A stretch of DNA of 55,950 bases, from NCBI GenBank assembly GCA_050011565.1, contig JBEKIW010000007.1, forward strand, positions 1 through 55,950. Reading direction: 5' to 3'. Positions 6,914 through 36,248 of this stretch are shown piece by piece. This stretch comes from Dehalococcoidia bacterium. Lineage in GTDB: Bacteria; Chloroflexota; Dehalococcoidia; GIF9; UBA5629. Within the stretch, counting starts at the first letter, position 1; every line of letters begins with the position of its first letter. Below the pieces are notes generated by a model. The model saw only the letters and a list, made by a program, of their open reading frames with translations. It was not told where the DNA came from and ran no database searches. A program made the translations under genes and the position numbers.

Positions 6914-7915
6914 GTGGATTTAAATTTAGTATTTATAATTTTTATCATCCTCGTAGCCCTGGGTTTCGATTTTACCAACGGCATGCATGATGCCGCTAAT
7001 TCTATTTCCACCGTCGTATCCACCAGGGTTTTATCGCCGAGACAGGCCGTTATCTGGGCAGCCTTTTTTAACTTTATAGCTTTTCTTATATTCGGCACGG
7101 CGGTGGCGAATACAATCGGCAAGGGGATGATCGACGTTAATACGGTTACCCCCACAGTTATTCTGGCGGGAGTCTGCGGAGCGATTTTTTGGAACTTGCT
7201 CACCTGGTATTTGGGGCTGCCTAGCAGCTCTTCTCATGCTCTGATTGGCGGATACGCCGGAGCCGCTATTGCCAAGAGCGGCTTCAGTGTGATTATAGCC
7301 AGTGGCTGGTACAAAACGTTGATTTTTATCGTCCTGGCGCCAGCTATCGGTCTGATTTTGGGCTACTTATTAAAAGTCATTACAACCTGGATTGTACGTA
7401 AACAGACACCGGCTGCGGTTAATAAATGGTCGCGGTTTGCACAATATTTTTCGGCAGCTCTATACAGCCTGGGCCATGGCGGCAACGACGCACAGAAGAC
7501 TATGGGTATTATAACCAGCCTTCTATTCGCCGGTGGCTTAATCAGCGAATTTAAAGTACCTCTCTGGGTGGTTCTGAGTGCACACGCAGCTATTGCTCTG
7601 GGCACATTGAGCGGCGGCTGGCGTATTGTTAAGACAATGGGGCAGAGAATTACTAAAATAAGGTCGATCGACGGTGTTTGTGCCGAGACAGCCAGCGCTA
7701 CCAGTATTTTCTTAGCCACTCATCTGGGTATTCCGGTAAGCACCACCCATGTGATAACCGGTGCCATATCGGGCGTGGGTTCGGCGCGCCGGCTTTCGGC
7801 CGTGCGCTGGGGCGTAACCATTAATATCGTTTGGGCCTGGATTTTCACTATTCCGGGAGCGGCTGTTATAGGGGCTATCATTTATTTCTTGATTCGGCTA
7901 ATTGAGTTAATTTGA
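6914..7915 (+). CDS. pit: Inorganic phosphate transporter, PiT family
   Basis: Signature motifs NGMHDAANSIST, GLPSSSSHALIGG, HGGNDAQK and PVSTTH. Confidence 0.95.
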   Translation: MDLNLVFIIFIILVALGFDFTNGMHDAANSISTVVSTRVLSPRQAVIWAAFFNFIAFLIFGTAVANTIGKGMIDVNTVTPTVILAGVCGAIFWNLLTWYLGLPSSSSHALIGGYAGAAIAKSGFSVIIASGWYKTLIFIVLAPAIGLILGYLLKVITTWIVRKQTPAAVNKWSRFAQYFSAALYSLGHGGNDAQKTMGIITSLLFAGGLISEFKVPLWVVLSAHAAIALGTLSGGWRIVKTMGQRITKIRSIDGVCAETASATSIFLATHLGIPVSTTHVITGAISGVGSARRLSAVRWGVTINIVWAWIFTIPGAAVIGAIIYFLIRLIELI

Positions 7916-26027: not shown

Positions 26028-27113
26028 TTATTGCCAGGCTCTCAACCTCTTAAAGGCGGATATTTTCTCACTATCGCCGACCTTAGCTTTCTCCAGCGCC
26101 TGGTGGAGAATTTCGATACTTTTGTCGTAATTTTCTTTGTCGACGGGGTAGGGGTGGCCATCTTTGCCGCCGTGGGCGAAGCTGTACCGTGCGGGGTCAC
26201 GAAGGCTGACGGGGACGTCATAGATAAGCTCCGATATCAGGCTCAGGGCGCGCAGGGTTTTGGGGCCGACTCCTTCTAGGCTTAATAGATTTTCAAAATT
26301 TTCCGGCTGGTGCTCGTAGGAGATTAAAAGCGTCTTATACAGGCGGTCGGGGTGTATATCATCGAGATTTAAATGATGGCGCGACGGCAGGTCCAGTGTC
26401 TTGAGCCTTTTTAGCTGGCTGATAATCTTTTCCGGTTTTTCTTCAATGGCAATCTGGGGGATGGTATGGCGTGCCGCTTCGCTCTCCGCGGCCACCAGGT
26501 TCAAGACTTCGCCTGTGGCTTGCGAGCAGATGGCGGAGTGAGGTTCGCAGACAAAATCGGACAAGTTTTCGCCCAGCCAATGATAACGTCGGGCATAACG
26601 GTTGCTCTCGTTCATGCCCTGCTGGACTACCGACCATGAGCCATCGGTGGTGAAAATGAAGACATGGTGGTAGAGCTGATAGCCGTCCTGAAGCGCTGAG
26701 TTGTCAACCTTGGCTGCCATTCGGCTGGCGTAGACCAGCGATGAGGAGTCCGATTTTAATAGATGGCCGACGCTTTCTATTTCGCTTGGAGTTTTCCTCG
26801 ACGTTCTGCCCTTGCCGCCGGCCACGAATAAGCCGAGGTCGGTTTCCAATCCCTTGATTCCTTCTTTAAGAGCGCCGCAGACGGTGGTGGTAACGCCGCT
26901 GGAATGCCAGTCGTAACCCAGGACGCAGCCGAATGCCTGGAACCAGAACGGGTCCGACAGGCGGCGGAGCATCTCCTCCGGCCCGAACTCGGCAGTGATG
27001 GCAATGGTTATTTCCCGGGCCAGTTTGGTCATGCGGTCGAATAGCCACCGCGGCGCCTTGCCGTAGTGCAACGGCAGATTGGCGGTACCGGTTCGTTGTG
27101 CTGAGTTGGTCAT
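26028..27113 (-). CDS. DUF763 family protein
   Basis: Motifs LPLHYGKAPRWL, RLSDPFWFQ, DWHSSG, KVDNSALQDGY.LYHH and FAHGGKDGHP. Its start overlaps the arsM stop (ATGA). Confidence 0.92.
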   Translation of the reverse strand: MTNSAQRTGTANLPLHYGKAPRWLFDRMTKLAREITIAITAEFGPEEMLRRLSDPFWFQAFGCVLGYDWHSSGVTTTVCGALKEGIKGLETDLGLFVAGGKGRTSRKTPSEIESVGHLLKSDSSSLVYASRMAAKVDNSALQDGYQLYHHVFIFTTDGSWSVVQQGMNESNRYARRYHWLGENLSDFVCEPHSAICSQATGEVLNLVAAESEAARHTIPQIAIEEKPEKIISQLKRLKTLDLPSRHHLNLDDIHPDRLYKTLLISYEHQPENFENLLSLEGVGPKTLRALSLISELIYDVPVSLRDPARYSFAHGGKDGHPYPVDKENYDKSIEILHQALEKAKVGDSEKISAFKRLRAWQ

Positions 27114-27943
27114 TTGCCGGGCTTTACCGCATGGACTTTTATGCTTTTGATTGAGCCGCCGAGCTTTTTCAAATCCGTCTGCGATATTCCCAAATCATTG
27201 ACCAGCGCCTCTATGGTAGGGTCTTTCACCGCGTAATCGCTTGGAAAAGACGTCTCGTCAACTATAGTTACTTCCTTGAATCCGGCAGCATTAATATTGT
27301 CCAGGTATTCATCTTTCATGGCGGCACCGGCTACGCAGCCGATATAAGCTGCCACGGACTTCTTTATGGAATCCGGAAGCTGACTCATTAAGACTATATC
27401 GGAGACCATTAATCTGCCGCCGGGTTTTAGCACCCGGAATGCCTCGCGGAAGACCCTGTCTTTTTCCGGCGACAGGTTGACCACGCAGTTGGAGATAATT
27501 ACATCAACGTAATTATCGGCTGTGGGCAGGTTTTCTATCTCGCCCAGCCTGAACTCTATGTTGTCATAGCCGCCCTGGCGGGCATTTTCCCGCGCTTTTT
27601 CAATCATTTCCGGCGTCATATCAACACCGATGACCTTGCCGGTTTTGCCGACAATATTAGCCGCCAGGAAGCAATCGAATCCGGCGCCGGAGCCGAGGTC
27701 CAGGACAACCTCGCCTTTTTTAAGAGAAGCCAGGGCCACGGGGTTGCCGCAGCCGAGGCCCAGATTAGCTCCTTCCGGGACCGATTCTATATCCTGGTCG
27801 CTATAGCCTATCCTTTTGCTGATGTCCGTGGCTACGTTTGATGAGCAGCCGCACGTACTTTGCGGTGCGCAGCAAGAGCTGCCGCTTTTAGCAACCTGGG
27901 CATAGCCTTCTCTGACAGCTTTTCTGACCTCTTCTTTTTTCAT
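27110..27943 (-). CDS. arsM: Arsenite S-adenosylmethionine methyltransferase
   Basis: N-terminal CC..CGC, LGLGCGNP, VLDLGSGAGFDC, IISNCVVNL and GCVAGA. Confidence 0.95.
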   Translation of the reverse strand: MKKEEVRKAVREGYAQVAKSGSSCCAPQSTCGCSSNVATDISKRIGYSDQDIESVPEGANLGLGCGNPVALASLKKGEVVLDLGSGAGFDCFLAANIVGKTGKVIGVDMTPEMIEKARENARQGGYDNIEFRLGEIENLPTADNYVDVIISNCVVNLSPEKDRVFREAFRVLKPGGRLMVSDIVLMSQLPDSIKKSVAAYIGCVAGAAMKDEYLDNINAAGFKEVTIVDETSFPSDYAVKDPTIEALVNDLGISQTDLKKLGGSIKSIKVHAVKPGK

Positions 27944-27990: not shown

Positions 27991-28030
27991 AGCTTTTTAC
28001 TACCCTGACCGGGCAGTTATGCTAGCCCCC
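27991..28030 (-). promoter_or_regulatory. Candidate bacterial SECIS element
   Basis: After UGA (28033-28031) the RNA reads GGGGGC UAGC AUA ACUGCCC GGUCA GGGUAGU AAAAA GCUA: a 7-bp stem whose GGU-containing loop starts 20 nt after the UGA. There is no U-tract after the stem on either strand. Confidence 0.55.
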
Positions 28031-28750
28031 TCAGCCTCCATAGCCGCAAGAGCCCCCATCGCTCGGTGGGCATGGAGGGGACGGCGGGGTTATCTGAATG
28101 TCAAATACCGGGCTGGGCGGTTCCTTAACTGTGAACTGCCCGCTGAGGTCGCCAAGGGCGACTTTATAGGTCCCGGGTAAACCCTTTGATACCTTAAAAC
28201 ACAGCATGCAGTTGGCCCCGGCGGGTACATTCAGTTTCTGGGTCTGGTTGGTGACGCCGTCTATCTTTAGTTCGGCCGTGTAACTACCCTGGCTGCCTCC
28301 GATATTGGTTAATGTAGCGGTTATAACCGTAGTTTGGCAGACATCGACCTCATCGGGATTTATTGCCAGGTTGGAGAGACGGAAGTCCGGAGGCGACGGT
28401 TTTTGCACGGTGAGGGTTGACTCTTTGTCGCCCACCGAAACTTTGTAGCCTCCGGCATAGCTTCTGGTAAGCTCGAATGTCAAAAGCTCTGATTGCCCGG
28501 GAGCCAGCGTAACGCTTTTCCTGCTGTCGGCGACACCGTTGACCATTAAAGGAATATTATACGTATCAGTTTCGGAGTTAATATTTCTGACCTCAGCTAC
28601 AACAGTCACTTTCTCACCTGTCGCGACCTTTGTAGGCGCCATATTAAAGGACAACACTTCGTAGCTTGGATGAGCCTCAACGCAGGCTTGTAGTAGACCA
28701 AGGCTAGCCAAAGCCAGTAAACATATTGCGCCAATAGTTTTTGTCTTCAC
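28031..28750 (-). CDS. Lipoprotein with two CARDB (Ig-like) domains and a Cys/Gly tail; candidate selenoprotein extending to 28022
   Basis: Lipobox LQAC and two CARDB-like domains (V.N...ETDTY...L.VNG; LTNIGG..GSYT..LKIDG). The tail is PPCPPSDGGSCGYGG-TGA-GGG-GGC-TAG. Confidence 0.85.
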   Translation of the reverse strand: MKTKTIGAICLLALASLGLLQACVEAHPSYEVLSFNMAPTKVATGEKVTVVAEVRNINSETDTYNIPLMVNGVADSRKSVTLAPGQSELLTFELTRSYAGGYKVSVGDKESTLTVQKPSPPDFRLSNLAINPDEVDVCQTTVITATLTNIGGSQGSYTAELKIDGVTNQTQKLNVPAGANCMLCFKVSKGLPGTYKVALGDLSGQFTVKEPPSPVFDIQITPPSPPCPPSDGGSCGYGG

Positions 28751-28801: not shown

Positions 28802-29503
28802 TTAAAGGATTACAATCAACCAGAAGCCTGCCACGATAAGAAGTACGCCCGAAGCCATGCGAACAGGCCCGGCGACCTTATTAGCAACGCCTGTCATTTT
28901 GCCCAGTCCTATACCTAATATAGCTGCCACCATGGGAAGACTGTACCCGATGGCGAATGCGGCAAGTATCAGGGCGCCCCAAACTCCCTCGCCTTTCAGG
29001 ATAGATAAGCCCAGAACCACGGGTAGAATCATCGGACCGCAGCATGCCATAGTGTAGGTTATGCTGGCACCACCGACGCCAAGTCCCATAACCGAAGCCC
29101 CGATAAAACCACGTGGAAGATTCTTTTTGACCGGATTAAATGACGGAATGCGGAAGGGCAGAAGATTAAGTGCAGCAAATCCGAAGAAAATGGTTATGAC
29201 GGCTATAAGTAGCTTGCCGTACAAACCGAATGTGCTTCCTGCCACCTGCCCGATGTAACCGACGAGATATCCCGCTGCTGATAGGGCAATGACAGTTCCC
29301 AGCATAAAGAAACCGGCTATTACCAAAATGTCCCTTTTCTGTGCCTCATCCCGGGAGCCGGCATATCCGACGACAGCGGCTATCAATGGAGCACTGCAGG
29401 CAATACAACCGATCGCCGTAATCAAACCCAGTAGGAATCCTGCCGGCAGGACCAGTATGCCAAATTGTGGGGCATTAAAGACTTGTTGAATCCACTCTTC
29501 CAT
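28802..29503 (-). CDS. CcdA/DsbD transmembrane electron-transfer protein with extra cysteines
   Basis: Six or more TM helices; GLITAIGCIACSAPL and MACCGPMILP occupy the two CcdA Cys positions; FAIGYSLP. Start taken as ATG 29503 (MEEWIQ). Confidence 0.82.
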   Translation of the reverse strand: MEEWIQQVFNAPQFGILVLPAGFLLGLITAIGCIACSAPLIAAVVGYAGSRDEAQKRDILVIAGFFMLGTVIALSAAGYLVGYIGQVAGSTFGLYGKLLIAVITIFFGFAALNLLPFRIPSFNPVKKNLPRGFIGASVMGLGVGGASITYTMACCGPMILPVVLGLSILKGEGVWGALILAAFAIGYSLPMVAAILGIGLGKMTGVANKVAGPVRMASGVLLIVAGFWLIVIL

Positions 29504-29508
29504 GCCAG

Positions 29509-30198
29509 CTATTTCCCACCGCAACAGCCGCTGCCTGGGGCACAACCTGGGGCACAAACAGGAGGTTGTAAAACCGTCAGATATGTCTGCAGAAGATTTT
29601 CTTCTGTGATGTCACCGGTCATAATCGCTCCATTGCCGCTGACGCTAATGGCCAGAACCGCCGGTACCCCTCCAATACCCAGGCGGCGCATCGTAATTGA
29701 GAATTCGGGGTCGTCAGGGCTCAGGGTTATTGTCTCCACACGTGCACCTCTGGCCTCGATTTTTGCTGTGGCGTCGGAAATCAGGTTGGTAAGTGTTTTA
29801 GTTGATTTAATGTCATTATCTGACAGAGTCACAAAAATAAAATCATGGTCAGCAAATTTAGCAGCGAGACTTTCCGACAACTTTAAGTCTCCGATGCCCG
29901 TTGCCTTAGGAAAATTTATGCTCGTGTATGAACCTGCCCTAGGAACATTTAGGCTCGTGTATGAACCTATTAACGGCACATTGCCCAAGGGCCCACTCGA
30001 AGCGGCGCTGTCACGTGTTGTCAGGGCATAGGTCACGGCAACTGCAATCAGAAGTATTCCTAAGGCGAAGACGGCAATCTTCCACCATGGCTGCCTGCTT
30101 GGGGGTTGCGGCTTAGTAGTATCCGCCGGGGACGGACAGCATCCCTTCTGGTCGCAACAATCTGTCTTTTGCACCTTTTTAAAACCTTTATCGCTCAT
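29509..30198 (-). CDS. Single-pass membrane protein with Cys-rich termini and a thioredoxin-like domain
   Basis: N-terminal DCCDQKGCCP, one TM helix, a GVPAVLA strand resembling the cis-Pro loop, and C-terminal CAPGCAPGSGCCGGK. SD AAGGAGA. Confidence 0.78.
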   Translation of the reverse strand: MSDKGFKKVQKTDCCDQKGCCPSPADTTKPQPPSRQPWWKIAVFALGILLIAVAVTYALTTRDSAASSGPLGNVPLIGSYTSLNVPRAGSYTSINFPKATGIGDLKLSESLAAKFADHDFIFVTLSDNDIKSTKTLTNLISDATAKIEARGARVETITLSPDDPEFSITMRRLGIGGVPAVLAISVSGNGAIMTGDITEENLLQTYLTVLQPPVCAPGCAPGSGCCGGK

Positions 30199-30229: not shown

Positions 30230-30559
30230 TCAAACGTTGACAGGCTGCTTGAAAAACTCAGCAAGGTCATCCAATGTATTTGGGTCAACCCAGCACTCAA
30301 CGGTTTGTCCTCGTCTTCTCATTTTTATCAGACCTGCTTGGTAAAGCTCCTTGATGTGGTGGGAAATGGTTGATGGAGCAATTCCTAAGTCTTTGCCAAG
30401 CTTGCCGACGCACTCGTACATCTCCGTTTCCGTATTGCAGGCACCTCCGGGAAGACAGCATGAAGCCAGGCGCATAAAAATGCTCAAGCGGTGTGGATTC
30501 GACAGCGCCTTGAATGCTCCGGCGAGCCGCTCCGAGCTGTCATTTCGAAAATTCGACAT
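30230..30559 (-). CDS. arsR: ArsR/SmtB family repressor (second operon)
   Basis: Motifs FKALSNPHRL, ASCC, ECVGKL and STISHHIKELYQAGLI. True start ATG 30559. Confidence 0.88.
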   Translation of the reverse strand: MSNFRNDSSERLAGAFKALSNPHRLSIFMRLASCCLPGGACNTETEMYECVGKLGKDLGIAPSTISHHIKELYQAGLIKMRRRGQTVECWVDPNTLDDLAEFFKQPVNV

Positions 30560-30596
30560 GTTTCGAATTATAAGCACAAGAACAAGCCTTTGTCAA
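30550..30596 (-). promoter_or_regulatory. Consensus promoter plus operator; leaderless arsR transcript
   Basis: TTGACA-18-TATAAT-7 nt-ATG. The inverted repeat AATTCGA-N6-TCGAATT (30550-30569) covers the start codon and the edge of the -10 box. Confidence 0.85.
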
Positions 30597-30626: not shown

Positions 30627-31709
30627 TCATGTTTGGTCATGGTTAGAGGCTAATTGCTTGGCAAAGAACCTTCGCTGGAAATACAAAGCTACATTGACCA
30701 GGCTTACCAATACCGGCACTTCCACCAGCGGCCCAATAACGGCGGCGAAGGCCTCACCGGAGCCGATGCCGAATACGGCCACGGCCACGGCGATAGCCAG
30801 TTCAAAATTATTGCTGGCGGCAGTGAAGGCAATGGCGGCCGTCTTGGAATAATCGGCCCCTATTTTCTTACCCATGTAAAAAGAAACCAGGAACATTATC
30901 ACGAAGTATATGAGGAGCGGGATGGCAATGCGTACAACGTCCAGCGGCAATTGGACAATGATTTCACCTTTCAGGGAGAACATGACAACTATCGTAAATA
31001 AGAGAGCTGCCAGGGTTACCGGGCTGATTCTGGGTATAAATTTAGTTTCATACCACTGGCGTCCTCTTGCCCTGATAAGAGCAAAGCGGGTAATCATTCC
31101 GCCGAAAAATGGTATGCCGAGGTAAATGAGTACGCTTTGAGCTATCTGGGCTATGGTTACGTTTACGGCGGAGCCTTTCAGCCCGAACCAGACCGGCAGC
31201 ACCGTTATGAAAATATAGGCGTAAACCGAGTAAAACAGTATCTGGAAAATCGAGTTAAAGGCCACCAGCCCGGCAGCGTAATCGGTATCGCCTTTAGCCA
31301 GTTCATTCCAGACAATAACCATGGCAATACATCTGGCGAGCCCTATTAGAATAAGGCCTGCCATGTAATCGGGATAGGCGCGCAGGAAAAGAATGGCCAG
31401 CAGGAACATCAACACCGGGCCAATCAGCCAGTTCTGTATCAGAGACAGGCCGAGTACTTTCCAGTTGCGGAAGATGAGGGGCAGGTCCTCGTATTTAACT
31501 TTTGCCAGCGGCGGGTACATCATCAGGATAAGCCCGATGGCTATAGGTATGGAAGTGGTATCGACTTGAAACAATGAAATGAAACCGGACACGGAAGGCA
31601 CGAAATAGCCGAGTCCGACTCCGAAGCCCATAGCCAGGAATATCCAGAGAGTCAGGAAACGGTCTAGCAGCGAGAGTTTACCGGTCGTAGATTCCGGCTG
31701 GTTTGCCAT
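30627..31709 (-). CDS. acr3: ACR3 family arsenite efflux transporter
   Basis: Motifs [31 protein letters not shown] and [17 protein letters not shown]. Confidence 0.96.
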
Positions 31710-31721
31710 AGTTTTTACCCC

Positions 31722-32555
31722 TCACTCTAAAAGTTTGGCTAAAGCGCGACGGTTTTCAGCAAATTCAGGCTGCTCCAGGTAAGGGCAATCCTCAAGGCGA
31801 CACTTACCTTTAGCCAGGTCAATGGCGAAGGCAAGGCAGGTCTTCTTGCCGCATTTCTGGCAATCGGTCTGGGGCAGTAGCTTATACAGCACCAGTCCCA
31901 GGCCCATCTTCGATTTGCCGGGTTCGACGGCCTGCTGCGGCTGGCTTAATTTAGCCACAATTTTGTGGACGATAGCCGGCTCAGGATAGGCTCCCATGTC
32001 ATAAAGCGTGTAATTCATGAATGCTACCGGATTCTCCTGGTAGCAGCTCCGGACCGCCTCTTCAATCACTTTTGGATTCAACCCCGGGACTTTGATGTCT
32101 CTTTCTCCTGGTTTGCAAAGCAGGTTGATGATGCTGACGATTTGCTGGTTAAATCTGTCTATTAGCTCCTTCGGTATATTGGACAGATACGGGGTAAGGG
32201 CTTTAGAGCCGATGATACGTTTAGCTTCGTCGATGCCGTTCTGTTTAAGTGCCAGCAGCGCTTCGCCGGGCAAATGCCCGGTTGATTCCCTGCCGCAGAG
32301 CACGATGTAACGAATATTCGGGTTAGCTACGATATTGCAGATTATCTTCTCCAGCCCTAAATTCTCGGTTTGGAGCATTCCGGAAAGGGCGGCACCTGCG
32401 TCTGCGGCGCACATAACGAGCTCGTTTAAATCCGGCGGTATCGCGAAGTCAAAGGTATCCAGAATGACACAAACGGCTACGGGAGAGTAGTCGTTACCTC
32501 TAACGTAACGGCCTTCCTCTGGGGGATAACCATCAGGTGGTTTAACTTTAAGCAT
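31722..32555 (-). CDS. Soluble MtrA-like corrinoid-binding domain fused to a C-terminal [4Fe-4S] domain (AcsC/CdhE/RnfB type)
   Basis: MtrA motifs G.Y.RGN.YSPVAV, GAALSG.LQTENLGLEKII.NIVANPNIRY.VLCG.ES.GH..G (Co-ligand His) and RIIG...PYL.N.....DRF..Q. C-terminal LLPQTD-C-x2-C-x4-C-x16-CP. No membrane anchor. Confidence 0.88.
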   Translation of the reverse strand: MLKVKPPDGYPPEEGRYVRGNDYSPVAVCVILDTFDFAIPPDLNELVMCAADAGAALSGMLQTENLGLEKIICNIVANPNIRYIVLCGRESTGHLPGEALLALKQNGIDEAKRIIGSKALTPYLSNIPKELIDRFNQQIVSIINLLCKPGERDIKVPGLNPKVIEEAVRSCYQENPVAFMNYTLYDMGAYPEPAIVHKIVAKLSQPQQAVEPGKSKMGLGLVLYKLLPQTDCQKCGKKTCLAFAIDLAKGKCRLEDCPYLEQPEFAENRRALAKLLE

Positions 32556-32570
32556 TAGCCTTTAACTACG

Positions 32571-33047
32571 TTATTCTTCTCCAGCCAGATATACACGAAT
32601 CCTGGTATTCACCAGTCTATCGAGTGCCTCGTCATCATCTTTCACCAACAAAATTTCCGGTACAGCGATAATGTGTTCGGTATCCGCTCTAACTACGTTT
32701 ATGAATAGTGAGAGAGATGTTGCTCCATACTTGTTAACGATAGCCGCATTGTTCTTGTCATTCAGATCAATACTTTGGAATGTCAATTTGCCACTGGCCA
32801 GTTCCTCAGGGAAGTTAAAAAATAAGGTACTTTGGATATATTCACCCGGGGTTGCCTGACAGTGGCATATCTCGCTATCGTAAAAATAAACGACATCTAT
32901 TCTATCCGGCGGACCAAGCTGTTCCTTTGGTAAATTCGTTGCCGGTGTTGGATTGGAACAGGAAGACAGCAAGCCAAGCACCAGCAGAGAAAGTAAAAGA
33001 ATGTAAGTTTTATTAGCTTTCTTGTTAGCTTTAACAAATATGTTCAT
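32571..33047 (-). CDS. ArsF-like thioredoxin-fold lipoprotein, paralogue 2 (CxC motif)
   Basis: Lipobox LSSC, DRIDVVYFY...CHC, and GKLTF..IDL.D..N..IV.KY..LFI; homologous to 33777-34325. Confidence 0.78.
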   Translation of the reverse strand: MNIFVKANKKANKTYILLLSLLVLGLLSSCSNPTPATNLPKEQLGPPDRIDVVYFYDSEICHCQATPGEYIQSTLFFNFPEELASGKLTFQSIDLNDKNNAAIVNKYGATSLSLFINVVRADTEHIIAVPEILLVKDDDEALDRLVNTRIRVYLAGEE

Positions 33048-33072
33048 ATTTTTAGCACATGCTTATAATTTT

Positions 33073-33777
33073 CTAGGATTGTATCCACAGCACCACATAA
33101 TATATACCAACTCCTATAAAGATAACGGAGACTATTATACGGATAATTCGTTCGGCGCGGGTGATGGCATTAAGCCAGGTAGCAACTCCAGCTACACCAG
33201 CAGACAGAAGCGTACCGAATACTAAAACAGGCAGCCCGGTGCCGATGGCGAATACTGCGGGCAGCGCCACGCCGCCGGTTGACTTGAGGGCCACGGGTAT
33301 CAGTGCGCCGAAGAATAGTACGGCGCTATAGGGGCAAAAAGCCAGGGCGAAAATGGCACCCAGCAGAAATCCGCCTATCATACCCCACTGTGCTACTTTA
33401 CTCCCCAACGAGGCTAATATGTTACCTCCCGTGCCGAAAGAGAGCCTGTCGATGAATAGCATAAGCAGTCCCACTATAATCAGCAGCGGTCCCAGGACCC
33501 GTTCACCGACGTCTTGAATGGTTGCAGAGACCCCCGGGATTTCCAGGCCGACCACGATGATAAGCACGCCAAGAACAGAATAGGAGAACATGCGACCCAA
33601 AGTATAGAGGGAGCCGGTAATGACTGCGTACTTACGGTCCGTCACGTTGCGCGTGATGTAGGCCACAGCAGCGATGTTAGTAGCCAGAGGGCATGGGGCA
33701 ATGGCGGTTACTAACCCCAAAAGCAGTGCCGTAAGCACCGGGATATTAGGACCGGACAAAATGCTGCCCAAGTCCAT
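33073..33777 (-). CDS. arsG: ArsG-family/DsbD_2 (CcdA-like) membrane protein
   Basis: Motifs TAIAPCPLATNIAAVAY, YTLGR, FALAFCPYSAVLFFG and FAIGTGLP. Confidence 0.8.
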   Translation of the reverse strand: MDLGSILSGPNIPVLTALLLGLVTAIAPCPLATNIAAVAYITRNVTDRKYAVITGSLYTLGRMFSYSVLGVLIIVVGLEIPGVSATIQDVGERVLGPLLIIVGLLMLFIDRLSFGTGGNILASLGSKVAQWGMIGGFLLGAIFALAFCPYSAVLFFGALIPVALKSTGGVALPAVFAIGTGLPVLVFGTLLSAGVAGVATWLNAITRAERIIRIIVSVIFIGVGIYYVVLWIQS

Positions 33778-34325
33778 TATTCTTCGCCCCTTAGGCTTCG
33801 CTCGATAACGTTCTTGACCTGCTGGTCGAAGCCCGCTTTATTGGTTCTGCAGCTCCAGGACCAGATGTCCTGTATATCTTTAATATTATCAGTGCCATCC
33901 TTCACAGTATCGATGAACAATTGTGAGCCGACAGCACCGTATTTTTTGACGATATCGGTATTTTTACTGTCTCCTATGTCATATACCCCAAAAGTCATCT
34001 TGCCGCCATTTAACTCGTTCTGAAAATATGTGTTCACGACATAGCGGATGCGCTCCTCGAAACATAGGCAAGTTGGGCAGCGTTGGGGACGGTGGAAATA
34101 GACGACGTCTACTCTGTCAAGTGAGCCAGTAGACTCATCCGGGATCTGCGAAGTTGACGAGTTGTCTGATGGCGCCGTTGTCATTTCAGACGGCGCGGCA
34201 GGTTCATCTGGCGAGGTCGGTTGTGCAGGCGGACTTGAGCAGGCAAAGAAGAGCAATAGGATAGCCAGGATAGCGATTATGATTAAGTGCGTCTTTGTCC
34301 TGAGTGATAAATTCATGTTTTTCAA
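33777..34325 (-). CDS. arsF: ArsF-family thioredoxin-fold lipoprotein
   Basis: Lipobox FFAC and VDVVYFHRPQRCPTCLCFE; coupled to the ArsG-like gene. Confidence 0.78.
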   Translation of the reverse strand: MKNMNLSLRTKTHLIIIAILAILLLFFACSSPPAQPTSPDEPAAPSEMTTAPSDNSSTSQIPDESTGSLDRVDVVYFHRPQRCPTCLCFEERIRYVVNTYFQNELNGGKMTFGVYDIGDSKNTDIVKKYGAVGSQLFIDTVKDGTDNIKDIQDIWSWSCRTNKAGFDQQVKNVIERSLRGEE

Positions 34326-34375
34326 TATCTCCTTGTCGCTTTGATTTTGCTTATGTCTGCAAGCGGACTGAAATC

Positions 34376-34642
34376 TCAGGCGCCTTTTTTCTGCTCTTCT
34401 CCAGCCAGGGAATTTATTATAAGCTGTGTAACTTCTGCTTTCGAAGGCACCTTACCAGAGCTGATTACCTGTTCATTTATTACCAGGCCGGGTGTGGTCA
34501 GGACGTTGTAAGCCATGATTTGACGCATATCCTTGACCTCCTCTACGGTGGCGTCGATACCCAGCTCTTTCACCACCTCTCTGGTGGTCTTTTCCAGCTG
34601 GCGGCACCTGGAGCAGCCCGTTCCCAGAATTTTTATATTCAT
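34376..34642 (-). CDS. Small redox-active disulfide protein (MTH895/Thioredoxin_3 family)
   Basis: MNIKILGTGCSRC...TTPGLVINE.V.SSGKVPS. SD GGAGG before ATG 34642. Confidence 0.92.
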   Translation of the reverse strand: MNIKILGTGCSRCRQLEKTTREVVKELGIDATVEEVKDMRQIMAYNVLTTPGLVINEQVISSGKVPSKAEVTQLIINSLAGEEQKKGA

Positions 34643-34729
34643 AGCAGTCGCCTCCATTTCGATTTTTCGGTTAATCCTTAGTTGGATTTACCTACATTAA
34701 AGTAATCTCTGATGTTAGCTTTTGACGGC

Positions 34730-35815
34730 TCATAAAATTGCATTAAACAAATAACCAACGATAACAATGCCCAGGGCCACCACGCCGACAAATACACCCA
34801 GTAACTGCCATTTAAGTACCCGGCGCAGGATTATGGTCTCAGGCAGGGAAATGGCCACTACAGACATCATAAAAGCCAGCACTGTTCCCAGCGCCGCGCC
34901 TTTTTCCATCAGGGCTTGTACCACAGGGATAATACCGGCGGCATTGGAATATATGGGCACACCAATCAATACTGCCATGGGCACACCCCACCAGGCATCT
35001 TTACCCATGAATGAGGCCAGCAATCCTTCAGGCACGTAGCCATGAATTACTGCGCCAACTGCTATACCGGCCAGAAGATAGGGCCAGACTTTACCCACTA
35101 TTTCACGTACGGCATTCAGGCCATAGTGGACACGGTCTTCGAATCGCATACCCGAATTTGCTGTAGCCGTCTGAGACAGCTTAATATCGAATACCCAGTC
35201 TTCTACGAACCTCTCCATTTTCAGTTTGCCTATAAGCCACCCCGCGATTATGGCTATGATGAGCCCGGTTACTATGTAAATTAGCGCGATTTTCCAGCCG
35301 AACATGCCGTAAAGTAGCACAACAGCCACCTCATTTATCATAGGCGACGCAATCAAAAATGATAAAGTTACACCAAGGGGGATTCCTGTCTCCAGAAATC
35401 CTATAAAGAGCGGGCAAGCTGAGCAGGAGCAGAATGGAGTGACAATACCCAGTCCCGAAGCCATGATGTTCCCCATAAATTGCCGTTTTCCAGCCAGCAT
35501 CTGCCGGGTGCGTTCCGGGGTAAAGAAAGACCTTATAATTCCGACTGCAAAGATGATAAGGACCAGCAGCAACATCACTTTTGGTGCATCGTAAAGAAAG
35601 AAAGCAACACTGCTGCCAAGGTGGCTTTGAGCGGGGAGTTTAAATACGTTGTATGTCAGGAAGTCAGCAGCCGGTTTAAGCCAATAGTACAGGAAGCCCC
35701 ATAGCACCAGGCAGCCGCCGAGCATAATAGATAAATTTAGTCTATTTTTGGTTGTTCCGGTCTCGGTGAGTGTGCCGCCGGGGCCGCCATCAGAATTAAT
35801 ATTTTTGCCTACCAT
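34730..35815 (-). CDS. arsP: ArsP (DUF318) organoarsenical efflux permease
   Basis: Motifs TPFCSCS, FLIASPMINE, GVPIYSNAAG, GTVLAFMM and SLPE. Confidence 0.9.
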   Translation of the reverse strand: MVGKNINSDGGPGGTLTETGTTKNRLNLSIMLGGCLVLWGFLYYWLKPAADFLTYNVFKLPAQSHLGSSVAFFLYDAPKVMLLLVLIIFAVGIIRSFFTPERTRQMLAGKRQFMGNIMASGLGIVTPFCSCSACPLFIGFLETGIPLGVTLSFLIASPMINEVAVVLLYGMFGWKIALIYIVTGLIIAIIAGWLIGKLKMERFVEDWVFDIKLSQTATANSGMRFEDRVHYGLNAVREIVGKVWPYLLAGIAVGAVIHGYVPEGLLASFMGKDAWWGVPMAVLIGVPIYSNAAGIIPVVQALMEKGAALGTVLAFMMSVVAISLPETIILRRVLKWQLLGVFVGVVALGIVIVGYLFNAIL

Positions 35816-35866
35816 GACGATAAAGTTTTATTCCTTATAACCTTTACAAAAATAGAGACGAGCGAA

Positions 35867-36232
35867 TCAAGCGGTGCTTAGCTTCCTAACCACACAGTTT
35901 GGACCTACTCTTTCCGTCTGTTGCAATCGCTGTCTATCCAGTAGGGCTATTTCGTTTCCTTCCAGCGCTTTCCCAACGGCTTCAACCAGGTTGGTGTAGT
36001 GCTGCTTTAAACCTTCCCTATCGATGGAATATAGTGCCCAAAGTCCCTCTCGCCTGAGCTTCAGGAAGCCGGCATCATAGAGGGCACTCAAGTTCCTTGA
36101 AGCCCGGGACTCGGAGATGTTGAGTACCTGCATAACCTCGCAGACGCAGCATTCGCGCTCCAGCAGCAGGTTAAGAATCCTAAGCCTGGTTTCGTCCGAC
36201 AGGGCCTTGAAGGCTTTAACTAACTCTCTCAT
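35867..36232 (-). CDS. arsR: ArsR family As(III)-responsive repressor (first operon)
   Basis: FKALSDETRLRILNLL..ECCVCE contains the alpha3 CVC site. ATG 36232 (GTG/TTG alternatives up to 36238). Confidence 0.93.
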   Translation of the reverse strand: MRELVKAFKALSDETRLRILNLLLERECCVCEVMQVLNISESRASRNLSALYDAGFLKLRREGLWALYSIDREGLKQHYTNLVEAVGKALEGNEIALLDRQRLQQTERVGPNCVVRKLSTA

Positions 36233-36248
36233 CACCAAACTCCATTAC

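Follow-up and report, generated by a model that had tools for sequence, protein, structure and literature searches.

A selenoprotein family recognized by sequence comparison in arsenic-resistance operons of uncultured Dehalococcoidales

The window analyzed here (the whole stretch of 55,950 nucleotides from a Dehalococcoidia bacterium, assembly GCA_050011565.1, contig JBEKIW010000007.1) contains a lipoprotein gene whose apparent stop codon, TGA, is followed in frame by a second stop and then by a hairpin. The locus raises the question of whether this TGA ends the gene or encodes selenocysteine (Sec), and what a protein with such a tail might do among arsenic-resistance (ars) genes. The gene has the following features:

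28022..28750, minus strand: Sec-read coding sequence, a lipoprotein of 242 aa with two Ig-like (CARDB) domains and a Pro/Gly tail containing Cys227, Cys235, and Sec240 (PF07705, alignment, AlphaFold2)
28682..28750, minus strand: signal peptide and lipobox ending in Cys23, the predicted lipid anchor (Cys in 20 of 21 aligned proteins)
28403..28663, minus strand: Ig-like domain 1, residues 30-116 (AlphaFold2 pLDDT above 90, all beta)
28124..28384, minus strand: Ig-like domain 2, residues 123-209 (AlphaFold2; Foldseek matches to generic tandem Ig/FnIII)
28025..28123, minus strand: low-confidence Pro/Gly/Ser-rich tail with C227, C235, and U240 (pLDDT from 64 down to 44; composition)
28031..28033, minus strand: Sec codon UGA (homologue comparison, sel genes)
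28022..28024, minus strand: true stop UAG (a second stop, TAG or TAA, is found in 72 of 72 TGA-form genes)
27999..28017, minus strand: SECIS hairpin between the true stop and arsM, in untranslated 3' sequence (loop GGUCA, 28010-28006, on a 7-bp stem)

The start codon is GTG at 28750 on the minus strand. Between the TGA at 28033-28031 and the TAG at 28024-28022 lie the codons GGG GGC, and the tail read through the UGA is ...SCGYGG-U-GG. The stem is formed by ACUGCCC (28017-28011) and GGGUAGU (28005-27999), and the loop begins 20 nt past the UGA. The initial annotation had described both the reading frame and the hairpin, and direct reading of the window found both exact. Its UAGC/GCUA lower stem appears in most of the four folds made but varies among relatives. 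It had also held that the hairpin is no terminator; a terminator scan of the site calls none, and the terminator reading was rejected on this ground.

The bSECIS model, in the available part of its description, expects an apical loop of 3-9 nt with G and then G or U at positions 1-2, a stem of 4-16 bp, a distance of 16-37 nt from the UGA, and an energy of at most -7.5 kcal/mol (PMC13188914). The same source also expects selA/B/C/D in the genome and a UGA that is kept in some homologues and aligned with Cys in others (PMC13188914). The window hairpin lies within all the bSECIS bounds (5-nt loop, 7 bp, 20 nt, and -10.5 kcal/mol by our own script), and by the same script an energy of -7.5 kcal/mol or lower was found in 65 of 72 relatives. 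By itself its stability is modest (z from -1.85 to -2.77 in four folds). An Rfam search returned a single chance-level match (E 7.3) and none covering the hairpin. Among 1624 crude ORFs of at least 120 aa in the same genome, a SECIS-type hairpin together with a TAA or TAG within two codons was found after 2 of the 472 TGA stops and after 0 of the 1152 TAA/TAG stops. The two positives are the gene described here and a gene with two in-frame TGA codons, which we take to be C-GCAxxG-like. As judged from sequence comparison, the excess over chance is carried decisively by conservation across homologues.

Homologues were collected from 30 genome regions and 80 metagenome loci. The matches kept had to extend to residue 195 with an identity of at least 36%; two one-domain paralogues (L087 and L090) and a gene at a contig end (L071) were dropped, and genes with identical tail and downstream DNA were collapsed, leaving 88 distinct genes, of which one (L091) is identical to that of the window. 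A TGA was found in the tail of 72 of the 88 genes. The next stop in these is TAG (52 genes) or TAA (20 genes), never TGA, and it lies 0-2 codons past the TGA in 71 of them; since the true stop is so close, the hairpin falls outside the coding sequence. By a strict rule, a hairpin was found in 69 of the 72 TGA forms and in none of the 16 others. Of the three TGA forms without one, L061 has a stem mismatch under an unchanged loop, L140 lies at a contig end, and L080 is divergent.

The remaining 16 genes end in three Cys, with TAG (11), TAA (4), or TGA (1, after CCP) as the stop. All of these Cys tails have exactly three Cys, arranged as CC-x4-10-C (11 genes) or C-x11-CC (5 genes). The 72 Sec tails offer two (37), three (34), or four (1) S/Se ligands, with three in the window, and their spacing ranges from CU to C-x7-U (C-x4-U in 56, CU in 8, others in 8). 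Because the tail is of low complexity, the protein alignment was anchored on the C-terminus; in this alignment, the last Cys of the Cys forms is aligned with U. Thus, a search for Cys-aligned homologues and hairpin covariation, which the initial annotation had suggested, yielded 16 Cys counterparts and compensatory changes in a conserved hairpin. The same annotation had likened the tail to the GSGCCGGK ending of the neighbor at 29509. That ending is as described, but the real counterpart with Cys is found within the family, in its Cys form. Among relatives of this neighbor, a Sec-type tail was found in none of the 10 tails listed, and Sec in it or in other neighboring genes was rejected as a candidate, with no Sec-type tail among the tails listed.

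The label "Sec" itself rests on the TGA, and it was therefore checked against a tree whose only input was the Ig domains (86 rows, without L069 and L086, which are too short). The tree contains a group of 69 genes with support 100/100, all with TGA, and a group of 17 genes, in which the 16 Cys forms are joined by a single gene whose TGA is internal. In L064 (G005), L106, L121, and L122, the family gene occurs in tandem, each copy having its own TGA, its own hairpin, and a different tail.

Among 400 genomes across the class, with seven candidates scored per genome, the protein was found only in the window's own taxonomic family, where 34 of 77 genomes have a match, a few of them via paralogues only. 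A scan of genome contigs with one protein gave two loci, both duplicates of genome matches, and no RNA run was listed as containing the family. Long Ig-repeat proteins dominate the representatives at 50% identity; of 150, 11 carry Cys among their final 12 residues, and 8 of these are family-like, longer forms of 332 and 423 aa included. Among the database homologues listed, 118 of 120 end at the UGA position, and none is named a selenoprotein.

The hairpin is conserved among the TGA forms. In 50 distinct hairpins, each of the six inner pairs is kept in 47-50, and 49 have U at the third loop position; the loop G was imposed by the search anchor. The loop lies 20 nt from the UGA in 35 of the 50. 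In the covariation analysis of 47 hairpins (L068, L079, and L080 were left out), 94% of the cells pair and four of the seven pairs show two-sided changes. These figures, which are inflated by relatedness and include the misaligned L082, exceed all slid controls; four of five measures also lie above 499-500 of the 500 shuffles.

The machinery for Sec insertion is encoded in the same genome, which is 99% complete. As the initial annotation had asked, selA, selB, selC, and selD were looked for, and selA, selB, selD, and the tRNA-Sec gene (selC) were found together on contig C4, all above curated cut-offs; selD itself contains an in-frame TGA. A genome-wide scan for UGA with a hairpin recovers SelD and further ORFs with in-frame TGA, presumably encoding FdhA, HdrA, MvhD, a DsbA-like protein, and an ArsS-like radical SAM enzyme. 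Comparison with known SECIS elements of the same genome had likewise been suggested, and the window hairpin resembles the FdhA-type one (7 bp, loop GGUCU, 18 nt), the two having nearly the same shape.

Across genomes, the form of the tail appears to follow the sel genes, with Cys as the substitute where these are missing. SelA was detected in 19 of the 20 TGA-form genomes (in part in G050, G053, and G040); in the remaining one, G002 (77% complete), selA, selB, selC, and selD were all not found. In 7 Cys-form genomes (64-98% complete), which belong to only three genera and so are not independent, selA, selB, and selC were found in none. The rule was then used to predict the tails of four newly found intact members. 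TGA was found in the selB-positive G477, the sole selB-positive one among 17 genomes of its genus, and Cys in the selB-negative G489, G482, and G485. A fifth new member, in G490, is frameshifted.

Taken as an ordinary stop, the TGA would leave the inverted repeat as a DNA operator or an RNA-processing site for arsM, which is the next gene in 55 of the 72 TGA forms; the modest stability of the hairpin alone and the lack of detected sel genes in G002 agree with such a view. Inherited TGA stops also persist at these loci: the neighboring arsR ends in TGA in 30 of 34 cases, and for this reason conservation of TGA is by itself no proof of Sec. At the same loci, arsM ends in TGA in 21, TAA in 10, and TAG in 8 cases, and the gene for the CcdA-type protein in TAA (15), TAG (2), or TGA (1). 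However, the hairpin travels with the family gene and not with arsM. Its consensus was found upstream of 1 of 20 other arsM genes, which had been chosen as not being known neighbors of the family, and the locus of this single arsM contains a further TGA-form family gene. It persists where the next gene is not arsM (the first copy in L064, L076, and L083). Its position varies less relative to the UGA (sd 1.5 nt) than to the true stop (2.1 nt) or to the arsM start (3.6 nt; n = 50). The arsM operator was rejected on the tie to the UGA and the absence of the consensus from 19 of the 20 other arsM. G-U pairs, occurring in the hairpins beside two-sided changes, and the agreement of tail form with sel genes also speak against an ordinary stop, which we regard as very improbable. 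The apparent stop UGA of the family gene is almost certainly decoded as Sec with the help of a downstream SECIS hairpin of the SelB type at a distance of about 20 nt, as the comparative evidence indicates.

Two genomes from Sec-poor genera, G025 and G477, have a family gene with an internal TGA and, on the same contig, a divergent selABCD cassette. Both genes group inside the Cys clade, yet their TGA stands at the upstream Cys pair and the terminal Cys is retained. In G477 (L225, G477:C55:6000-23390), the cassette is part of the ars island: selA-selB-selC-selD stands 4 kb away from the family gene, with arsM on one side and arsA-arsD on the other. In G025 (L226, G025:C84), the sel cassette is on the contig of the family gene beyond an IS21 pair, and no ars gene was seen there. 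The SelB proteins of the two genomes, which represent two genera, are 87% identical to each other and 48-58% identical to those of 20 others of the window's taxonomic family. Matches to MvhD (5 and 3 copies) and HdrA are Cys forms without TGA, unlike those in G008, G040, and G046, and no Sec-type FdhA or ArsS was found in G477 and G025 (four client families were checked). Against this second origin, the two hairpins are no more stable than shuffles (z -0.17 and 0.30), both bins are incomplete (82% and 89%), and misbinning is possible. In a tree of 42 rows, made of a chosen subset of Sec rows with three paralogues as outgroup, the Cys group lies inside the Sec forms; with deep support of 44-52 at several nodes, the order suggests Sec, then Cys, then Sec regained.

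The genes surrounding the family gene in the window are as follows:

26028..27113, minus strand: DUF763 gene overlapping the end of arsM (PF05559; within 3 kb of 24 of the 72 TGA forms)
27110..27943, minus strand: arsM, arsenite methyltransferase, Cys form (NF008823, above cut-off)
28802..29503, minus strand: CcdA/DsbD-type membrane protein, directly upstream of the family gene (PF13386)
29509..30198, minus strand: membrane-anchored protein with Cys-rich ends (without a Pfam/NCBIfam match; weak thioredoxin-fold lead)
30230..30559, minus strand: ArsR/SmtB repressor, first gene of the sub-operon (NF033788, above cut-off)
30567..30596, minus strand: predicted sigma-70 promoter directly before arsR (12/12 consensus, sequence scan)
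30627..36238, minus strand: upstream ars island with acr3, MtrA-FeS, ArsF, ArsG, ArsF, ArsE, ArsP-type permease, and ArsR (Pfam/NCBIfam)

The island thus runs from ArsR through the ArsP-type permease, ArsE, ArsF (two copies), ArsG, MtrA-FeS, and Acr3 to the promoter, followed by arsR, the Cys-tailed membrane protein, CcdA, the family gene, arsM, and DUF763. An inverted repeat lies at the arsR start codon after the promoter and, by its sequence, is a possible operator. This context is shared by most of the family: at least one ars gene was found within 3 kb of 84 of the 88 genes, including 68 of the 72 Sec forms and all 16 Cys forms, and two of the four TGA forms without one are on contigs of less than 2 kb. 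The next gene is arsM in the window, where the initial annotation had placed the family gene directly upstream of it, and in most Sec forms (see above), and arsD in 12 of the 16 Cys forms.

CcdA is directly upstream in all 16 Cys forms and in 12 of the 72 Sec forms, 12 more Sec forms stopping at a contig edge. An orthologue was found in 11 of the 26 genomes searched and was not found in the Sec-form genomes G010, G013, G046, G053, and G001 (98, 97, 96, 95, and 91% complete, respectively). The proposal of the initial annotation that the tail is kept reduced by the adjacent CcdA therefore does not hold as a general rule, nor was the obligate partnership found that would mark a substrate of a DsbD/CcdA relay. 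ArsG, found in 20 of the 26 genomes searched and in all 11 of the high-quality ones, may substitute for CcdA.

Several other genes of these islands deserve mention. The protein at 29509-30198 has Cys clusters at both ends and stands beside CcdA in 10 related regions; compared with thioredoxin-like clusters of an atlas it gave weak TM values of 0.37-0.44 by query, and its atlas look-alikes are found in other phyla. The gene at 31722-32555 (minus strand) of the window fuses an MtrA-type corrinoid domain with an FeS domain and adjoins acr3, as it does in 10 of 30 related regions; a methyl-transfer step in arsenic handling is a possible role. Other ars-linked predicted lipoproteins with a C-terminal CC and no NCBIfam match are encoded at L077:10670-11395 and in L066, L078, L080, and L082. 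A membrane protein of 570 aa (L063:12950-14671, L067:5727-7451, L071, L072, L073), in which an Ig-like part is combined with a thioredoxin domain resembling ResA/TlpA, recurs in the ars islands of Sec-form genomes. In L083, an HgcC-like gene (7270-7548, NF040962) lies between the family gene and arsM.

The family product is predicted to be a lipoprotein on the outer face of the membrane, with a stalk of two Ig domains and a flexible tail presenting two or three S/Se atoms. The initial annotation had called it a CARDB lipoprotein, which agrees with a Pfam match to CARDB (PF07705) at 31.1 bits against a gathering score of 22.7. It agrees also with the conserved lipobox Cys, assigned from motif and conservation, and with Lgt (two copies) and LspA, both encoded in the genome. 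The AlphaFold2 model consists of a signal helix, two confident beta-sandwiches, and a low-confidence tail. Foldseek gave generic Ig matches only, with TM at most 0.36 and no DsbD chain among the matches listed. Large proteins contain as many as 16 copies of the same Ig repeat, and there are family-like forms with extra repeats; both suit the role of a stalk. Two such forms known from protein sequence, P0129 (423 aa) and P0153 (332 aa), have the same kind of signal and tail. Lipoprotein paralogues with one Ig domain and long Cys-rich tails are encoded at L090:8121-8711 (G000:C2:48121-48711) and in L087, where they adjoin ABC transporter and sulfur amino-acid genes, not ars genes.

Arsenical binding was inferred from the ars context, from the constant number of three Cys in the Cys tails, and from the loosely spaced ligands in the Sec tails. 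On balance, the tail is probably a binding arm for trivalent arsenicals at the cell surface. The spacing in the Cys tails is similar to that of AfArsR, whose C-terminal As(III) site is formed by Cys95, Cys96, and Cys102 and whose two-Cys mutant still binds MAs(III), according to the available part of the report (PMC4287715). A tail with two or three ligands would capture As(III) or methylarsenite, either on arrival at the cell or once ArsM, encoded in the same operon, has methylated it and Acr3/ArsP has exported it, and the capture would limit entry or re-entry of the arsenical. In such a site the selenolate would act as a ligand that is softer than a thiolate and fully ionised. DsbD-type proteins would keep the tail reduced, CcdA where present and ArsG otherwise, and expression would probably start from the ArsR promoter at 30596. 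Failed insertion of Sec would lead to termination at the UGA and hence to the same protein minus one ligand. The variable ligand number and spacing of the Sec tails seem to fit a flexible chelator better than a fixed catalytic motif, and the two-ligand tails, about half of them, would suit methylarsenite. A tie between two-ligand tails and arsM was considered and rejected: arsM adjoins 25 of the 37 two-ligand and 25 of the 34 three-ligand genes, without a trend. Against an arsenical trap stands the cost of a stoichiometric sink that has no recognised release step.

The main rival is a catalytic redox arm, in which the thioredoxin-like protein, CcdA, and the Ig protein would form a split DsbD-like relay, contributing a thioredoxin fold, a membrane domain, and an Ig fold, respectively; by selenenylsulfide cycling, it would supply electrons to proteins of the envelope or to arsenicals that are oxidised or nitro-aromatic. 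A cycling selenenylsulfide is known from the C-terminal arm of animal thioredoxin reductase. In favor of this relay are the CcdA gene upstream of every Cys form and of the window's gene, the weak thioredoxin-fold lead for the 29509-30198 protein, and the predominance of C-x4-U (56 of 72), and ArsE, ArsF, and ArsG are encoded in the same island, ArsG in 11 of 11 high-quality genomes. CcdA is, however, upstream of only a minority of the Sec forms (12 of 72) and was found in 11 of the 26 genomes searched, the spacing varies from CU to C-x7-U, the constant three Cys exceed what a dithiol needs, and no homology to DsbD's N-terminal domain was found. We therefore consider the redox arm rather unlikely. 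Still less probable, in our judgment, is a tail that binds another soft metal or metalloid (Sb, Hg or methylmercury, Cu) or acts as a general heavy-metal trap within the ArsR regulon. Cys/Sec tails are chemically unselective, the island includes the MtrA-type corrinoid/FeS gene, and an HgcC-like gene adjoins the family gene in L083, but the constant neighbors (ArsM, ArsA, ArsD, Acr3) are arsenic-specific. In favor of such a tail, a non-homologous selenoprotein, SaoC, sits in an organometal operon with undefined substrate, according to the available part of its description (Haft and Gwadz, bioRxiv 10.1101/2022.07.06.499078).

SaoC (NF040734) is the closest precedent for the family. In the available part of its description, it is predicted to be a lipoprotein, ends in Cys or Sec, has an ArsP-family exporter as a neighbor, and is proposed to bind metal, and its UGA is immediately followed by a true stop, hence a non-coding SECIS (Haft and Gwadz, bioRxiv 10.1101/2022.07.06.499078). 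As described there, SaoC has about 158 aa, ends in CC/CU-COOH, contains Sec in 3 of 52 members, and belongs to the SAO organometal operon. Unlike SaoC, the family found here has two Ig domains, a Pro/Gly tail of about 27 residues, mostly C-x4-U, Sec in 72 of 88 members, and ars operons as its context. The window protein, ending in C-x4-U-GG and not CC/CU-COOH, gave no match to NF040734 at E 0.01. The KCU-star/DUF466 selenoproteins (NF033934) also have a terminal Sec and are encoded beside transport genes; they are small, end in CU-COOH, and are described, in the accounts available, without an Ig stalk or lipobox, and NF033934 was not matched here. The type-2 site of AfArsR and the ArsD metallochaperone share with the Cys forms of the family three Cys near the C-terminus, the CC-xn-C order, and ars operons, as far as the available text describes them (PMC4287715). 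They are, however, cytoplasmic, contain Cys only, and have other folds, the family tail being a candidate binder from its sequence.

DsbD has an N-terminal Ig domain, and split CcdA systems have a thioredoxin-like partner. The likeness to both lies in an Ig fold beside a CcdA-type membrane protein and a thioredoxin-like protein, whereas the S/Se atoms of the family are on a disordered tail and not on the Ig fold, and CcdA is often missing. Sec-containing ArsM and ArsM fusions (NF008823, NF041536, NF041537) also place selenium in arsenic-handling operons, but here ArsM has Cys, and it is a second protein, an exported one, that has Sec.

The family is apparently uncatalogued, as judged against the NCBIfam models, of which none matched the family protein at E 0.01, and against the 119-family selenoprotein table, which in its available part contains no CARDB entry and no row matching the family (PMC13188914). 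The family is not mentioned in the available text on deep-Sep, as searched by terms (PMC12013277), and a search of the literature on selenoproteins, CARDB, Dehalococcoidia, arsM, and SECIS found nothing on it. BSepDB, according to the accessible part of its description, searches known families only and places Dehalococcoidia among the most selenoprotein-rich genomes (PMC13326102). The kind of protein therefore has a precedent, a lipoprotein with terminal Sec in a metalloid operon, while the architecture and context are new. In the literature examined, as far as the available texts go, an extracellular selenium-based arsenical trap is an undescribed component of ars operons.

A broader scenario can be offered tentatively. 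The protein could be a dedicated extracellular selenium trap for trivalent arsenicals; lineages losing Sec would have switched to three Cys, and some would have re-acquired selABCD with the ars island and placed Sec at a new tail position, with the family protein and SelD as the main clients. The selenoprotein family adds a surface component to the ars operons of arsenic-methylating anaerobes and links selenium supply to arsenic handling. Public annotation leaves off the last one to three residues of its members, which thus break off exactly at the likely functional atom. Sec and Cys occur in the family as natural counterparts, Sec having apparently been regained, and the peptide is short enough for synthesis, so that any advantage of Sec over Cys as a ligand is directly testable. 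Additionally, the lineage gains a clean SECIS consensus from about 50 distinct hairpins, of which only one is under coding constraint.

Further selenoprotein candidates were found in the window's genome. At G000:C1:146595-146984 (plus strand), an exported protein has a long Gly tail ending in TGA-Gly-Cys-Gly-Gly in frame, with a hairpin at 20 nt. A secreted Ig-repeat protein at G000:C3:217211-218560 (plus strand) has an in-frame TGA right behind the signal peptide. Two related exported or membrane proteins, G000:C2:176634-176981 (plus strand) and C4:51358-52065 (minus strand), have an in-frame TGA a few residues ahead of a Cys and near-identical hairpins, and the gene on C4 adjoins selB. An in-frame TGA with a hairpin was also found at G000:C1:496474-497184 (minus strand), C2:191192-192274 (plus strand), C1:490204-491208 (plus strand), and C1:556306-556962 (plus strand), which presumably encode a C-GCAxxG-like/glutaredoxin fusion with two TGA, an Fe-S protein, an ArsS-like radical SAM enzyme, and a DsbA-like protein, respectively.
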